64,000 bases of DNA from Ostreococcus lucimarinus (lineage: Eukaryota): assembly GCA_000092065.1 (NCBI GenBank), contig CP000593.1. One strand, given 5' to 3'. Both the position numbers and the translations under genes were made by a program. The notes under the pieces are model-generated. The model was not told where the DNA came from and did no database searches. It saw only the letters and a program-made list of their open reading frames with translations. Shown here in pieces: positions 10,496 through 40,152 of this stretch. The stretch's first letter is position 1. Every line of letters starts with the position of its first letter.

Positions 10496-11378
10496 ATGAG
10501 CGCGCAGGCGACGCGAGATCAGCTGCGGACGGCGTTCGCGGAGTTAGAGTGCGTCGCGCGATGCGATGGGATGGGATTCGAGCGACGCGAGCGACGCGAC
10601 GAGACGGAATACGCGCGAGGGACGGGACTGACGGAGCGAGCTCGCGACGCGTCGGCGCAGGGACGGATTCAAGCGTAAGGACGTTCTCGAGAGCCGCGAG
10701 ACGTCGGTGTCGAGCGGACACTTGAAAAAGTTGACCAATAAAATGGCGGAGAGTAAAAAGCTGATCAAGGAGTTTGAGAGACGGGCGCTGAGCGAAGGGG
10801 CCATGGACGCGAACGCGTTGGCGGCGGCGAAGAAGGAATACGTGTCGAGGTTGAACAAGTTTGTGCAGATGAAGAAGGAGGCGCAGATTGCGATCGCGGA
10901 GAAACAAGAAGAGAGGAAGAGCGAGGTTGGTAGTCAGGGCGGGGAAGCGAGCACGTCGGGAGGGGTGACGACGTCGACGACGGCTACGTCGACGGCGTTT
11001 ACGTTGCCGGCGTTCCGGCCAAAGCCAAAGGGGGAGATTGTAGAGGATGAGCAGTTGCAACTCATGGAGGCTGGGGATTTGATTGATCACGGTAGGAACG
11101 TCATGGACCAAACGGATAAGAGCATCATGCGAAGCGAAGCGGTGGTTGAGGAGACGATTCAAATAGGGACGCAAACCGCCGAGGCGTTGCGCGGGCAGAC
11201 AAAACAACTGGAGAAAATCGTAGATGATCTCGATGAAATCCACTTTTCGTTGAAAAAGTCGTTTGGCGTGCTGAAGGACATCACCCGTGGGTTAGCGACG
11301 GATAAGTGCATCATGCTCTTGCTCTTTTTGGTCGTCGTCGGCGTAGTTGTGGTCATCATTACGAGGTTCGTGAAGTAG
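10496..11378 (+). CDS. NPSN-type Qb-SNARE (novel plant SNARE family), two exons: join(10496..10548,10661..11378)
   Basis: Exon 2 gives the SNARE motif and tail anchor (DLDEIHFSLKKSFGVLKDITRGLATDKCIMLLLFLVVVG), near-identical in pattern to plant NPSN11 (ELDSIHFSLKKASKLVKEIGRQVATDKCIMAFLFLIVIG). The ORF-track start 10707 lacks the N-terminal helix. Exon 1 (MSAQATRDQLRTAFAEL-E) joins in frame (phase 2) across a 112-nt GTGCGT...GCGCAG intron. Confidence 0.8.
10549..10660 (+). mobile_element. Introner-like element forming the SNARE intron (112 nt)
   Basis: GTGCGTCGCGCGATG...GACGCGAGCGACGCGACGAGACGG...GGGACTGACGGAGCGAGC...GTCGGCGCAG. Shares the donor, the CGACG repeats, the GGGACTGACGG box and the terminus with the other four introns. 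Confidence 0.75.
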
Positions 11379-21215: not shown

Positions 21216-21492
21216 TCGTTGGCGCGCGAACGACGCGTCGATGTGACGCCTTCGCTGCTCCGCGACCTTTCGTCACAGCGCGACGGCGCCGCGCGCGAGA
21301 CGACGCGCGATGGCGTCTCTCGCGATTCGAGACGCCGTGCGCGCGCACGGCGCGCGCGCGCGACTCGCGCGCGCGCTCGCGCGACGGCGCGCGGGCGCGA
21401 CGACGGGCGCGCGCGGTGCGACGACGACGACAGCGACGGCGACGACGACGCGCGGTGCGCGCGATGGCGTGGACGCGCGACGGTGCCGAGGG

Positions 21493-22926
21493 ATGAACGA
21501 CGCGGCGAAGGCGGCGTTGGATGCGTCGGCGCGCGCGCGCGCGAGCGCGAGCGCGAGCGCGAGCGCGGGGCCGGTGGTGTACTGGTGCGACCGGGACAGG
21601 CGGTGCGCGAATAACGACGCGCTGGGACGAGCGATGGAATTGGCGAACGAAAGGCGCGTCCCGCTCGTCGTGGCGATGCACGTGGGGACAGATTTGAGCG
21701 GGAGCGGCATCGGAGGCGCGCGCAGGGCGGTGTTCGCGCTGAAGGGGTTGAAGGAATTGGATGAGGATTTGCGAGCGCGAGGAGTGTCGACGCGAACGAC
21801 GACGGGAAGCGACGTCGCGGGAGGAATCGTGGAGACGTGCGAGACGCTGAATGCGAGTGCGGTCGTGTGTGACTTTTCGCCGTTGCGAGAGGGGCGTGCG
21901 GCGAGGGAAGCGGTGGCGCGTGTGGTGGAGGTTCCGGTGATTGAAGTGGACGCGCACAACGTCGTGCCGGCGTGGGTGACGAGCGATAAGCAAGAGTACG
22001 CGGCGAGAACGATTCGGCCGAAGATTCATCGAAATCTCGGGGATTTTCTCACCGCACCGCAAGCGTTAGATGATCTCATCGCCGCGCCGGACGCGTTGAC
22101 GCCAAGTGAGACGGATTGGGACGCATTGATTGACACCGCGCGCGTCAAGGGCGCGCACGTCCCAGAGGTTGACTGGATCAAACCGGGTGAACGTGCCGCC
22201 TTAGCCGCGCTGCTCGATCCGAATGTCGACTCTTTCCTCCCACAGCGATTGACACTCTACGGGGAGCGAAACAAGCCGACGTCGCCGCGCGCCGTGTCTC
22301 GCCTCTCGCCGTACTTGAATCACGGCCAGCTGTCGCCACGTCGCGCCGCGTGGGAAGCTGCGCAACTTCGGGGAATCGTAGACGACGAGGCGATCGATAG
22401 CTACTTGGAAGAGCTCATCGTTCGAAGGGAATTATCAGACAACTATTGTCTCTTCAATCCGTATTACGACTCGTTGCAAGGAGCGAGTCAATGGGCGCAA
22501 GATTCACTGAGTTTGCACGCCCGCGACGTTCGCGAGTACGTGTACGATTACAAAACACTCGAGCGTGGCAACACGCACGACGAGCTTTGGAACGCGGCTC
22601 AGAAAGAATTATACCATCTCGGACGAATGCATGGGTTCATGAGAATGTACTGGGCGAAGAAGATTCTTGAGTGGACGCCGTCGCCGGAGGTGGCCCTGCA
22701 GACGGCGATTCAACTCAACGACGCTTACGCGTTAGACGGTCTCGATCCCAACGGCTACGTTGGTTGTATGTGGAGCATTGCCGGTGTGCACGATCAAGGA
22801 TGGAAAGAGCGCGCGGTGTTCGGTAAAGTGCGGTATATGAATTACGCCGGTTGCAAGAGAAAGTTTCAAATCCAAGATTACGTAGCGGCGGTCGACGCTG
22901 AGATAAGCGGAATAGGTCGCAAATAG
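21493..22926 (+). CDS. Class II CPD DNA photolyase
   Basis: The N-terminal alpha/beta domain (VVYWCDRDRRCANNDAL...RVPLVVAMHV) and the class II FAD-binding C-terminus (WAQDSLSLHARDVREYVYDYKTLERGNTHDELWNAAQKELYHLGRMHGFMRMYWAKKILEWT...YVGCMWSIAGVHDQGWKERAVFGKVRYMNY) match. ATG at 21493. Confidence 0.9.
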   Translation: MNDAAKAALDASARARASASASASAGPVVYWCDRDRRCANNDALGRAMELANERRVPLVVAMHVGTDLSGSGIGGARRAVFALKGLKELDEDLRARGVSTRTTTGSDVAGGIVETCETLNASAVVCDFSPLREGRAAREAVARVVEVPVIEVDAHNVVPAWVTSDKQEYAARTIRPKIHRNLGDFLTAPQALDDLIAAPDALTPSETDWDALIDTARVKGAHVPEVDWIKPGERAALAALLDPNVDSFLPQRLTLYGERNKPTSPRAVSRLSPYLNHGQLSPRRAAWEAAQLRGIVDDEAIDSYLEELIVRRELSDNYCLFNPYYDSLQGASQWAQDSLSLHARDVREYVYDYKTLERGNTHDELWNAAQKELYHLGRMHGFMRMYWAKKILEWTPSPEVALQTAIQLNDAYALDGLDPNGYVGCMWSIAGVHDQGWKERAVFGKVRYMNYAGCKRKFQIQDYVAAVDAEISGIGRK

Positions 22927-23011
22927 GACAGCAATCTTTGTTATTCTTAGAGATTTTAGGTAGAAACGTTACAATCACTAGCGACGTACTACTGACACAC
23001 GACGTACATAC

Positions 23012-24691
23012 TTACGGTGCGCCTTCGGCGGAGCAAAGGAAAGGATCTAAAGGCTTCCCAAGCGCATACACAATGAAACCAATGTCCTTCAACTTCTGGT
23101 GGTCCAAGATGAGGCGGCCGTCGAACACAAAGGCCGGCTTTTGCATGACGCCATAGATCGCTTCCCAGTCGTACGTCTTGAACTCGTCCCATTCCGTCAT
23201 AATGCACACGGCGTGCGCACCAGTCAAAGACTCAGTGTGAGTCTTGCAGCACGTGATGGATTTCATCGCTTCCTCGCCCATGTCCAACGCGATTTGCGCC
23301 GCAGCAACCTTCGGGTCATAAATATTGAGCTTCGCACCGTCTTCGATGAGGCCGTGACCGACGTCGATAGCCGGAGACTCACGAGTATCACCCGTATCTT
23401 TCTTAAAAGCGTAACCGAGCATTGAAATCTTCTTGCCGCTGATCGTGTTGAACATGGCGGAAATCATGCGCTTGACGAAGCGGCTCTTTTGGTAGTCGTT
23501 CATGCCGACAACGCTGTGCCAGTACTCCGCCACTTCCGGCAAGCCGTGGCACTCACAAATGTATGCCAAGTTTAAGATATCCTTTTGGAAGCACGAGCCA
23601 CCGAAACCGACCGAGGCGTTCAAAAATTTGGAGCCGATACGCGTGTCGGTGCCGATGGCGTGCGAAACTTGCTGGACATCCGCGCCGGTCGCTTCACAAA
23701 GCGCGCTCATGGCGTTGATGGAAGAAATGCGCTGCGCCAAGAATGCGTTCGCAGCGAGCTTTGAGAGCTCGGCAGACCACAAGTTAGCGGTCAGAATGTT
23801 CTCTTTCGGTACCCAGTTGGAGTACACGCCTACGAGCGCGTCCACCGCCGCTTGACCTTTGGCGTTTTCAATCTTACCCCCGATCAACACGCGATCGGGC
23901 GCATCCAAGTCTACAATGGCCGTACCTTCGGCCAAGAATTCTGGGTTGGACAAGATGTCGAATCGCACGCCGTCGTGCGGGCAGTTGCGCTGGAGCACCT
24001 TTTCAATGGCCTCCGCCGTTCGCACGGGCACCGTAGACTTCTCAACGATGATCTTATCACTCTCGGAGCACGCCGCGATGGTGCGCGCCGCCAACTCCCA
24101 GTACGTCAAATCCGCCGCCTTACCTTTTCCTAAACCAGTCTTCTTCGTCGGCGTGTTCACGGAGACGAAAATCATCTCGCAGTCTCGAATAGCCCCTTCG
24201 ACATCCGTCGAAAAGAACAAGTTCTTCCCTCTGCACTCGAACACGATCTCATCCAACCCGGGCTCATAAATCGGCAGCTCGCTCGAGTTCCACGCGTCGA
24301 TCCTCGGCTGCGAGATGTCCACCACCGTGACCGAGATCTGCGGGCACTTCTTCGCGATCATCGCCATCGTCGGCCCGCCCACGTATCCCGCGCCGATGCA
24401 ACATACTGCGTCGTCCCCGAAACCGCGCGCGTCGTCAGTCCTTCGTCCTCGCGCGCCTCCATTCGCACCGTCGCGCGCTCTCCCATCTTTCGCGCCCGTC
24501 CCAACGCTCTCCCGTCGCCGTCGTCGCGTCTCCGGTCGTCGCCGCGTCTCGCGGATGGTTTCCGGACATCTTTCCGACGACCGTCGCGATCGCCCTCGTC
24601 GCGTCGTCTCGCGCGTCGCGTCGTCTCGCGTCGCGTCGCGTCGCGTCGCTCGCGTCGTTCTTCACGCACTCGTCGTGATCGGCCTCGTCAT
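23012..24691 (-). CDS. UGDH: UDP-glucose 6-dehydrogenase, two exons: join(complement(23012..24405),complement(24670..24691))
   Basis: [19 protein letters not shown] catalytic motif and NAD-binding [12 protein letters not shown]. The ORF-track start is a GTG inside the Rossmann motif, with no in-frame ATG upstream. A 22-nt exon 1 (ATG ACG AGG CCG ATC ACG ACG A) plus a phase-1 264-nt intron gives [20 protein letters not shown]. Confidence 0.88.
24406..24669 (-). mobile_element. Introner-like element forming the UGDH intron (264 nt, longest copy)
   Basis: Minus-strand sequence: GTGCGTGAAGAACGACGCGAGCGACGCGACGCGACGCGACGCGAGACGACGCGACGCGCGAGACGACGCG...GGACTGACGACGCGCGCGGTTTCGGGGACGACGCAG. Confidence 0.85.
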
Positions 24692-25038
24692 GCCGCGATC
24701 GCGTCGCGTCGCGTCGTCGCGCGCGCGCGTGTGCGGGGCGACCGGATCGCGCGCGCCTCCGAGGCGTCGATGTCGTGTGGGTAAACAGTCCGACGTCGCG
24801 GTCGGTCGTGTATTGGCACCGCGCGCGGGTGTGATTTCGAATTCGATTTCGAAATCGACCTCGCGCGTCGCCGGCGCCGACCGACGCGCGGCGCGCGACA
24901 CCGACGCGCGCGATGGCGACGGCGACGACGACGACGACGGCGCGCGCGATGCCGTCGCGATGGCGCGCGCGCGCGACGACGCGAACGAACGCGAGGGCGA
25001 ACGCGAGGGCGAGCGCGGCGGCGGACGAGCGGTACGCG

Positions 25039-26190
25039 ATGCGCGGCGTGAGCGCGTCCAAGGAGGACGTGCACGCGGCGATAAAGAAGGTGGACAAGGG
25101 ATTGTTCCCGAAGGCGTTCTGTAAGATCGTGGAGGACATCGCTGGGGACGAGGCGTACTGCACGTGCATGCACGCGGACGGCGCGGGGACGAAGACGAGC
25201 CTGGCGTACGCGTACTGGAGAGAGACGGGAGATTTGGGAGTGTGGCGAGGAATCGCGCAGGATTCGATCGTGATGAACACGGATGATTTGTTGTGCGTCG
25301 GGTGCGTGGATAACATATTCGTCTCGAGCACGATCGGGAGGAATAAGGCTTTGATTCCGGGGGAGGTGCTGAGCGCGCTCATCAACGGGACGGAGGAGGT
25401 TTTGGAGACTTTGCGCGAGTGTGGGGTCGGGGTGAAGTCCACGGGAGGTGAAACCGCGGATTTGGGTGATTTAGTGCGCACGGTGGTGGTGGACACCACG
25501 GTCACGGCGCGCATGCGAAGAGACGCGGTGGTGAGTAACGACAACATTCGCGCCGGAGACGTCGTCGTCGGTTTGGCGTCGTTCGGTCAAGCGACGTACG
25601 AGAGCGAGTACAACGGCGGAATGGGAAGCAACGGATTGACGTCTGCTCGACACGACGTGTTTGCGAAGAATTTGGCGGAAAAATATCCGGAAACGTTCGA
25701 TCCGAACGTACCCGAATCGTTGGTGTACAGCGGCAAGTATCAGCTCACCGACGTCGAGCCGGAAACCGGCGTGACGGTTGGCAAGTTGGTGCTCAGTCCG
25801 ACGCGAACGTACGCCCCCGTGGTGAAAGCCGTGCTCGATGCCATGGACGTGAGGGATATTCACGGCATGGTGCACTGCAGCGGCGGCGCGCAGTCCAAGG
25901 TTGGACACTTTCTCCTCGACGGCTTGCGCGTCGTCAAGGATAACATGTTCCCCATTCCCCCGCTCTTCCGCTTGATCCAGGAGTGCTCCAACACCGAATG
26001 GAGCGAGATGTACAAAGTGTTCAACTGCGGACATCGTCTCGAGTTTTACTGCTCCCCCGAACACGCGCAAAAGATTATCGATATTAGCCAGAGCTTTAAC
26101 ATCGACGCCCGCGTCGTCGGCAGAGTCGAAGCCAAGGATGGCAAGTCTGAAGTCGTGGTGAAGAGTGAATACGGTGAGTTTACGTATTAA
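25039..26190 (+). CDS. PurM-family protein (AIR synthase-like N and C domains), stand-alone
   Basis: MHADGAGTKTSLAYAYW (cf. PurM DGVGTK), GGETADLGDLV (cf. GGETAEMPG), VHCSGGAQSKV and MYKVFNCGHRLEF (cf. MYRTFNCGVGM). ATG at 25039, preceded by junk in the ORF-track entry. Confidence 0.78.
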   Translation: MRGVSASKEDVHAAIKKVDKGLFPKAFCKIVEDIAGDEAYCTCMHADGAGTKTSLAYAYWRETGDLGVWRGIAQDSIVMNTDDLLCVGCVDNIFVSSTIGRNKALIPGEVLSALINGTEEVLETLRECGVGVKSTGGETADLGDLVRTVVVDTTVTARMRRDAVVSNDNIRAGDVVVGLASFGQATYESEYNGGMGSNGLTSARHDVFAKNLAEKYPETFDPNVPESLVYSGKYQLTDVEPETGVTVGKLVLSPTRTYAPVVKAVLDAMDVRDIHGMVHCSGGAQSKVGHFLLDGLRVVKDNMFPIPPLFRLIQECSNTEWSEMYKVFNCGHRLEFYCSPEHAQKIIDISQSFNIDARVVGRVEAKDGKSEVVVKSEYGEFTY

Positions 26191-26212
26191 TACGTAATAT
26201 AAAATCAAAAAT

Positions 26213-26932
26213 CTAAACCACCCCTTGTTTCGTCGTCCCCGTCGGGCGATCCTGCTTGCCCTCGGCGATTTCCTTTGCCTTGCGCGCGTCGCGCCGCGCT
26301 CGCAACTCTTCGATGCTCACCCCTCGAAGCTCGCGCCTGTAAAACAACAACCAATTCGCCACCTGCGCTCGACGCGTCATGTTCGGCGTCAACCCTTCCA
26401 TCTTAAACCCTTTCCATCCCAACGGCGTGAGCGTCGTCTTAATCCCTTGCTTGTGTTCCTCCGGCACCGACCGCGTCAACGCCGCGCACGCCACCTTCAC
26501 CGGCGCGTCAATCTTCGGATCGTACTTCCTCGTCACCCCGATCACGTCCGGTGGTTCGGGATAACTTTTCGCCCAATTCGGAAACACCTCATCCGGCGTC
26601 CACACCTCGTTCGCCGTGAGCGTCTCCGCGTCCAGCTCCACGCGCGAGCGATAGCCCAGCGCGTTCCACACCAGCCGGTTCACCTCCTCATCCGCGAGCT
26701 CCGAGCGCACGATCGACAGCAGCACCTCGTTCGACAGCGGGTCCGCCCCATCGCGCGCGTCGTCCCACGGCTTCGCGCCCCACTCGTCCTCACCAGCGCG
26801 CGTCTCGACGCGTCTTCGTCCCGAGGGCGTTCGCACCGCGGCGGCGCGTCGCGGCGTCGCGCGTCGCGTCGTCGTCGCGTCGCGCGTCGCGCGTCGCAGC
26901 GTCGTCGCGGACGTCGTCGTCGAGCTCGCCAT
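26213..26932 (-). CDS. Conserved hypothetical protein with a T/R-rich transit-peptide-like N-terminus (plastid-lineage type, unassigned)
   Basis: The C-terminal 180 aa are non-repetitive (NEVLLSIVRSELADEEVNRLVWNALGYR...GWKGFKMEGLTPNMTRRAQVANWLLFYRREL). The ORF-track start 27307 is Arg-rich shadow; a plausible ATG is at 26932 (MASSTTTSATTLRRATR...). Confidence 0.45.
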   Translation of the reverse strand: MASSTTTSATTLRRATRDATTTRRATPRRAAAVRTPSGRRRVETRAGEDEWGAKPWDDARDGADPLSNEVLLSIVRSELADEEVNRLVWNALGYRSRVELDAETLTANEVWTPDEVFPNWAKSYPEPPDVIGVTRKYDPKIDAPVKVACAALTRSVPEEHKQGIKTTLTPLGWKGFKMEGLTPNMTRRAQVANWLLFYRRELRGVSIEELRARRDARKAKEIAEGKQDRPTGTTKQGVV

Positions 26933-30778: not shown

Positions 30779-31427
30779 TCACTTCTCGTCCAATTCGTCC
30801 ATCATCTTCTCCAGCTCGCTCGCCGGCATTTCTTCCAAACGCTTTTGCATCACCGCGTTTTCGTACTGTTTAACCATCGTCGAAACGAAACGTCTGAGCG
30901 TCAGTCTTCGGTTCGCGTTTTCTTTCTCCTTCGCGTTTCGTCTCGCGCTCTCGCCTCGTTCGCTTCGCACGCACATCCTTCAACTGCTTCGCGTAAGTCA
31001 TGTCCTTATTGAACACTCGCATGACGTACGACCCCACCCACGCGAGCGTCAATCCGAGCACGAACGTCAACTGCACCGCGTTGCCCGCCTTCGTCGAATC
31101 CATCCCCGCGAACGATTGCAACCCGTAGTACGCCGCGAATCCCGCGCCCGTGACCCCGGTCCCGATCAGCATCACGTCCGCGCGCGTGTACCCGAACGGC
31201 ACGTCGCCTTCATCGTCCGCGGGCGTCGCGCGCGTGCGCGTGGTCTTCCCGACGCGCGGCGATTCCAGCCTTCGCGTCGTCGTCATCGTCTTCGTCGTCG
31301 CGCGCGCGCGCGTCGCGCTCGACCGCGCGGCCGCGAACACGCCGCGCGCGCGTCGCGTCGTCGCGCGTCGCGTCGTCGCGCATCGCGCCGTCGTCGTCGT
31401 CGCGCGCGTCGTCGTCGCGAACGTCAT
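30779..31427 (-). CDS. Small two-TM membrane protein of cyanobacterial/plastid-lineage type (DUF3007-like, tentative), two exons: join(complement(30779..30865),complement(30975..31427))
   Basis: The ORF track splits it into two frames (30870..31427 and 30779..30976). A 109-nt intron with GTGCGT donor, CTGAC branch box and AACAG acceptor joins ...MTYAKQLKD to YENAVMQKRLEEMPASELEKMMDELDEK in phase 0. T/R-rich transit-like N-terminus. Confidence 0.65.
30866..30974 (-). mobile_element. Introner-like element forming the DUF3007-like gene intron (109 nt)
   Basis: Minus-strand sequence: GTGCGTGCGAAGCGAACGAGGCGAGAGCGCGAGACGAAACGCG...GAAGACTGACGCTCAGACGTTTCGTTTCGACGATGGTTAAACAG. Shares GTGCGTGCGA, GCGAACGA, GCGCGAGACGA, GACTGACG and CGATGGT with the other copies. 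Confidence 0.7.
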
Positions 31428-39959: not shown

Positions 39960-40152
39960 GTGCGTGCGATGCGACGCGACGCGACGCGATCGGGCGCGCG
40001 GACGACGCGGACGCGCGCGACGAGACTGCCGCGAATCGATGGAATTCCGAGGACGGTTACTAACCCGACGGAACGAATGAATCGACGCGACGCGACGCGC
40101 GGACGACGCGACGCGGAGGACTGACGACGGTACGAATCGATGGTCATCACAG
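39960..40152 (+). mobile_element. Introner-like element in the 5' region of the acyl-CoA dehydrogenase gene (193 nt)
   Basis: GTGCGTGCGATGCGACGCGACGCGACGCGATCGG...TTACTAAC...GACGCGACGCGACGCGCGGACGACGCGACGCGGAGGACTGACGACGGTACGAATCGATGGTCATCACAG. A possible exon 1 (39915..39959, MTTREPFGEGVPFGD) joins in phase 0 to 40153, 13 codons upstream of ATG 40192. Confidence 0.65.

Follow-up and report, generated by a model that had tools for sequence, protein, structure and literature searches.

Where does the UDP-glucose dehydrogenase (UGDH) gene of Ostreococcus lucimarinus begin, and what kind of intron parts its start codon from the rest of the enzyme? In the window analysed here (the whole 64-kb stretch of O. 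lucimarinus DNA) the gene occupies the minus strand, and its long open reading frame has no in-frame ATG upstream. The earlier note, made from the bare sequence, had proposed that the UGDH start is hidden behind a 264-nt introner; of this proposal the gene structure stands, while the introner label falls (the intron position is ancestral and no copy family was found in the window or in metagenomes). We are highly confident that the 5' end of UGDH consists of a 22-nt exon followed by an ordinary, ancestral and single-copy canonical intron, which is no mobile introner, and that this structure is already annotated.

The features at the 5' end of the gene were placed by reading and translating the minus strand, and by comparison with a transcript-like Logan contig (SRR17229554_21929, 1825 nt; hereafter L001):

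24691..24670, minus strand: coding exon 1, 22 nt, ATGACGAGGCCGATCACGACGA (sequence read and translated; contiguous with exon 2 in L001)
24669..24406, minus strand: intron, 264 nt, 70% GC, GT..AG, phase 1 (absent from L001, its position kept in 8 lineages)
24669..24663, minus strand: 5' splice site GTGCGTG, in which GTGCGT is 24669..24664 (sequence read; equal to the published O. lucimarinus consensus)
24440..24433, minus strand: branch-point motif GACTGACG (sequence read; equal to the extended O. lucimarinus consensus)
24408..24406, minus strand: 3' splice site CAG (sequence read and L001 junction)
24405..23012, minus strand: coding exon 2, starting TATGTTGCATCGGC (completes the Ile codon with its last two bases and codes for the remainder of the 471-aa enzyme, stop included)

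Exon 1 codes for MTRPITT and supplies the first base of an Ile codon (split A|TA by the intron), and the spliced reading frame amounts to 1416 nt (471 aa and the stop). Without splicing, the frame opened by the ATG at 24691 ends after nine codons (MTRPITTSA*); in the translation no in-frame ATG was found between this stop and the Rossmann motif, and the next methionine (MAMIAKK) lies downstream of the GxGxxG loop. A purine-rich, (GACGC)n-like tract makes up the 5' third of the intron, whose 3' end reads ...GACGACGCAG, with 24406 as the last base. The branch A is found at 24435 (30 nt from the intron 3' end), within a branch site that is missing from the earlier note. The coordinates given there (i.e. 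those of the 22-nt exon, the GTGCGT donor, the acceptor and the 264-nt phase-1 intron) proved exact to the base when the minus strand was read and translated, and the translation, L001 and the GenBank product all bear out a long open reading frame that lacks an upstream in-frame ATG and whose start codon is hidden behind an intron. The pre-mRNA carries a 22-nt coding exon followed by a 264-nt U2-type spliceosomal intron, whose phase-1 removal inside the Ile codon joins MTRPITT-I to exon 2 and completes the stretch that precedes the GxGxxG NAD-binding loop.

L001 encodes the identical protein in an uninterrupted frame (45-1460). BLAST against the window places its positions 31-66 at 24705..24670 and its positions 67-1825 at 24405..22647 (BLAST lets the second piece begin at position 60 already, owing to a GACGACG microhomology), and the junction is 24670|24405, with exon 1 joined to exon 2 without the intron. 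This junction cannot slide: the last base of exon 1 is A but that of the intron is G, and the first base of the intron is G but that of exon 2 is T. Because the intron is missing, we infer that L001 comes from RNA; taken as such, it provides junction evidence of the cDNA type for the splice. Its 5' end does not map downstream of 24405, and no other exon takes the place of the 22-nt one. Two further features stem from the L001 alignment:

24705..24692, minus strand: proximal 5' UTR, at least 14 nt, GACGCGATCGCGGC (L001 31-44, match 100%)
23011..22647, minus strand: 365 nt of 3' sequence beyond the UGDH stop (L001 1461-1825)

The 3' part of the contig overlaps the last ~280 nt (22647-22926) of a convergent photolyase open reading frame (21310..22926, plus strand); this may mean that the two convergent genes have 3' UTRs which truly overlap, or that two transcripts were merged during assembly.

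An exact-sequence look-up matched the spliced 471-aa product, residue for residue, to ABO99397.1 / XP_001421104.1 (O. lucimarinus CCE9901, 'predicted protein'), so the claim that splicing yields MTRPITT-I and a complete UGDH N-terminus was correct. As the product is identical to XP_001421104.1, the gene model is already part of the public annotation, and the start codon, the 22-nt exon and the intron must match those annotated; no difference between the CCE9901 model and the window gene was detected. The UGDH gene structure is correct but already known, having been deposited with the O. lucimarinus genome. The same look-up returned the identical 471-aa sequence under ABP01209.1 / XP_001422850.1, i.e. 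there are two accession pairs for one UGDH sequence in O. lucimarinus, which suggests that the genome holds two identical UGDH copies (a segmental duplication), of which the window carries one or the other.

Homologues of the spliced protein comprise UGDHs of Mamiellales (80-94% identity) and of plants (66-68%), and precomputed matches to Pfam PF03721, PF00984 and PF03720 are present on the identical product and on all homologues. The match to human UGDH (3tdk; E=1.6e-181) aligns from residue 5: residues 5-20 of the window UGDH align with the N-terminal segment of the human enzyme, with the ITT of exon 1 and the split Ile lying against its IKKI. The GxGxxG NAD-binding loop and the hydrophobic stretch that precedes it form a whole motif only once the transcript is spliced. 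The translated product also contains the catalytic-cysteine motif, aligned with that of the human enzyme, and we take the Cys in this motif to be the catalytic residue of the UDPG/MGDP dehydrogenase family. Judged by its similarity to the plant and human UGDHs, the enzyme is predicted to convert UDP-glucose to UDP-glucuronate with the reduction of 2 NAD+.

The antiquity of the intron was assessed in eight lineages: the window, O. tauri (L002), three Ostreococcus-like metagenome lineages (L003/4, L005/6 and L007/8), two more distant Mamiellales metagenome lineages (L009 and L010) and Bathycoccus prasinos (L011). All eight have an ATG with a 19- or 22-nt exon 1, followed by a phase-1 intron in the Ile codon that precedes CC. 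The donor GT[GA][CA]G[TC], a CTRAY branch motif and a YAG acceptor recur at every compared locus, and in all orthologues CTRAY is located 20-43 nt from the intron 3' end. The first exons of the orthologues encode M..(I/V)(T/K)(T/K/S/N), with the following predicted N-termini:

O. tauri (L002): MVTVTK-I-CC
Ostreococcus-like lineage L003/4: MTREIKK-I-CC
Ostreococcus-like lineage L005/6: MVEIKK-I-CC
Ostreococcus-like lineage L007/8: MVKEIKN-I-CC
More distant Mamiellales lineage L009: MVKVAS-I-CC
More distant Mamiellales lineage L010: MVKITT-I-CC
Bathycoccus (L011): MVKITK-I-CC

The annotated O. tauri protein starts with MVTVTKICC (469 aa, encoded by an annotated gene 1610 nt long), and the spliced N-termini MVKITTICC and ...MVKVASICC were found on transcript-sized contigs. 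Set beside its orthologues, the spliced N-terminus from the window agrees with MVKITTICC, MVKITKICC and MVTVTKICC. Gene order (AIR synthase / UGDH / photolyase) is common to the window, O. tauri and the three Ostreococcus-like lineages. Considering that the intron occupies the same codon, in the same phase, across Ostreococcus, the distant Mamiellales and Bathycoccus, it predates their divergence. Among the orthologous introns, length varies between 159 and 286 nt and GC content between 42 and 74%, and their comparison revealed no alignable sequence except for the splice signals and a CGGAA/TTCCG region.

In Bathycoccus (GCA_964199525.1, L011 1501-4814) the annotated 692-aa 'UGDH' (P0009) consists of the enzyme with ~220 unrelated residues fused in front of it. 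The DNA of this locus shows an ATG with a 19-nt exon and a 270-nt intron, and MVKITKICC is internal to P0009. It is likely, from the arrangement of the locus, that the Bathycoccus UGDH starts at MVKITKICC and that the 692-aa model is a gene-fusion annotation error.

The UGDH ATG is 221 bp from the ATG of a divergent AIR-synthase (purM-like) gene at 24913 (plus strand); this spacing makes it likely that the two genes share a compact promoter, and transcription of UGDH would start in the 221-bp divergent region common to both. Mid-intron, a near-palindrome, CGGAA-N4-TTCCG (e.g., CGGAAGATTTTCCG), stands out in the three Ostreococcus-like lineages within introns that are otherwise unalignable. Its copies, together with a degenerate one recognised in the window by comparison with CGGAA-N4-TTCCG, are located as follows:

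L003 1399-1412: CGGAA-N4-TTCCG
L004 1400-1413: CGGAA-N4-TTCCG
L005/L006 1429-1442: CGGAA-N4-TTCCG
L007/L008 1251-1264: CGGAA-N4-TTCCG
Window 24561..24576: degenerate near-palindrome copy CGGAAAGATGTCCG (minus strand)

CGGAA-N4-TTCCG is absent from the first intron in O. tauri, at the two more distant Mamiellales loci and in Bathycoccus. The element could be bound by a dimeric factor, or it could fold as RNA into a 5-bp hairpin. That the intron has been retained at its position for regulation, with the palindrome acting as a downstream promoter/enhancer site for UGDH/purM or as a splicing hairpin, is an idea that we hold to be improbable.

In our judgement it is very unlikely that the 22-nt exon is preceded by another non-coding exon farther upstream, or by a leader that is trans-spliced or alternative, which would leave a first exon of 22 nt plus a short UTR incomplete. 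What speaks for it is the first 30 nt of L001 (GGTGCCAAGTCCCCTGAATTGGCAAAGAAG), which found no match in the 64-kb window, either by short-word BLAST or when as many as 3 mismatches were allowed. However, at the break (24706/24705) the genome reads GC, not AG, just upstream of 24705, and there is therefore no canonical acceptor at this place; moreover, the divergent purM-like gene only 221 bp upstream leaves little room. The foreign stretch measures exactly 30 nt; if the Logan assembler used k = 31, this would equal k-1, a length that graph tips and chimeric joins typically leave behind. We consider the 30-nt leader of L001 to be probably an assembly tip, a chimera or an adapter. Apart from these 30 nt, L001 follows the window upstream of the ATG as far as 24705, which sets a lower bound on the 5' UTR.

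Returning to the intron itself, its features are those of the canonical Mamiellophyceae class. EST-confirmed O. lucimarinus introns outside chromosome 2 have the atypical donor consensus GTGCGTG, and carry ACTGAC in 87% and the extended GACTGACG in 66.5% of cases (Irimia & Roy 2008, PMC2483917); the donor and branch site of the UGDH intron are exactly equal to GTGCGTG and GACTGACG. Verhelst et al. 2013 (PMC3879977), a further source for the lineage donor consensus GTGCGT(G), place canonical Mamiellophyceae introns mostly in the 5' region of genes. The UGDH intron shows the lineage donor with GT..AG ends, the branch motif and removal (in the presumably RNA-derived L001), and it is a singleton at a shared position. 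It thereby resembles the canonical (i.e. non-BOC, non-introner) Mamiellophyceae introns in its GTGCGTG donor, its branch motif, its GC-richness, its site at the extreme 5' end, its unique sequence and its shared position. Its length of 264 nt exceeds both the median of 111 and the mean of 168 for O. lucimarinus (from the table in PMC2483917, with the column order inferred), but stays within the ordinary range.

The arrangement has a parallel outside the green algae. Intron-poor genomes offer examples of a short first coding exon followed by a 5'-proximal intron, the ribosomal-protein genes of yeast among them. The likeness consists in the start and a few codons being cut off by the gene's only intron, and in consensus-like splice signals; the UGDH case differs from the yeast genes in its lineage and in the consensus sequences themselves.

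Could the intron nevertheless be an introner, i.e. a member of a recently mobilised, near-identical family such as that of Micromonas pusilla CCMP1545? Introners are repeat introns of conserved sequence that occur at novel positions and favour the middle of genes, as characterised in PMC3879977 and PMC4540971, which also document them in the sister genus Micromonas. In common with the Micromonas introners (IE-A/B/D of CCMP1545; IE-C of RCC299), the UGDH intron functions as a GT..AG intron and lies in GC-rich sequence of a Mamiellales genome, and IE-C of RCC299 has the same GACTGACG branch motif. The (GACGC)n 5' third of the UGDH intron, in addition, is 80-92% identical, over 30-70 nt, to several other GC-rich parts of the window, and three other candidate introns with the same purine-rich composition were found there. 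These are stretches of the form GTGCGT...(G)ACTGAC(G)...YAG (YAG 12-50 nt downstream of (G)ACTGAC(G)) that carry the full set of signals:

10549-10660, plus strand: full-signal candidate intron
39960-40152, plus strand: full-signal candidate intron
30866-30974, minus strand: full-signal candidate intron

The four full-signal candidates (UGDH and these three) share only their sense-strand purine-rich (GACGC)n composition, and all of the short matches of 80-92% identity lie inside the (GACGC)n tract (intron positions 12-90). Copies of the intron were sought in the 64-kb window and by an exact 18-mer scan of metagenomes. Permissive BLAST against the window returned only matches of ~60-77% identity to low-complexity sequence, and the best full-length match (68% identical) scored 81 bits, against 71 +/- 6 bits (maximum 88) for dinucleotide shuffles, 5 of 60 of which scored as high or higher. 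The 18-mer, taken from the non-repetitive core of the intron, occurred in 28 metagenome stretches, with extended similarity in three, all of them the UGDH locus; the remaining 25 were unrelated chance matches without extended similarity. A repeat search of 24350-24750 found neither terminal (inverted) repeats nor a target-site duplication at the intron ends, the ACGACG near both ends being part of the local low complexity. Nor can the orthologous introns be aligned beyond their splice signals.

Position weighs against an introner as well. The intron has the same position and phase in every locus that we fetched (in Ostreococcus, the distant Mamiellales and Bathycoccus), and is thus ancestral rather than a recent insertion, whereas introners by definition occupy novel positions (PMC3879977, which also describes repeat introns as unique to Micromonas within the Mamiellophyceae). 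By the same account, Micromonas introners number from tens to thousands of conserved copies at novel, mid-gene positions; the UGDH intron, by contrast, is single-copy, positionally ancient and placed at the first codons of its gene. With an ancestral position, with no copy family in the window or in the metagenome 18-mer scan and with no terminal repeats, the term 'introner' used in the earlier note is not sustained, and the probability that it applies is, in our estimate, minimal. Introner identity was rejected as a candidate class, since no copy family turned up in the window or in the metagenome scan, and a novel position and transposon-type termini were lacking.

The notion that UGDH is N-terminally truncated or starts downstream (at MAMIAKK..., 451 aa), the upstream ATG and GT..AG being coincidental, has next to no probability: prokaryote-style gene callers do report the 451-aa product, the truncated form from which the earlier note set out, on 12 metagenome contigs (JGI, Logan, ENA, Tara), and 'MAMIA...' models of 449-450 aa abound in related clusters, but this form would lose the GxGxxG-loop segment present in the eukaryotic UGDHs compared, L001 and the curated eukaryotic annotation both have the spliced form, and the short exon is kept in 8 lineages.

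Public metagenome catalogues hold many mis-called UGDHs, of two kinds (clusters P0002, P0003, P0005, P0013, P0015 and their relatives). The first are MAMIA truncations of 449-451 aa; the second are read-through models whose N-termini translate the intron 3' end (e.g., MCWIDSWLFSRVVCC, MITRSDDTDDEFSRAVCC, MVKVASSTFPACAF...ATVCC). A separate oddity is the metagenome contig L036 (JACLAB010000568.1), in which, at 2297-2362, window 26824..24465 is joined to 21420..23461 in inverted orientation; the two pieces meet, at window 24465 and 21420, in a microhomology of 13 nt (CGCGCGACGGTGC) that falls within the UGDH intron. Either the contig is a chimeric assembly, or it reflects an inversion in a wild strain that would split UGDH exon 1 from exon 2.

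We reason that the lesson of this locus concerns annotation, as prokaryote-style gene calling on marine metagenomes fills the catalogues with wrong versions of UGDH. Reading the bare sequence can recover the 22-nt exon correctly, and yet overcall an 'introner' from low-complexity composition alone. The biological weight of the finding is small, given that the gene model was already deposited and that the intron is a typical member of the canonical class of its lineage. If the regulatory reading of the near-palindrome were true, the first intron of UGDH would be a conserved regulatory module and no passive relic.
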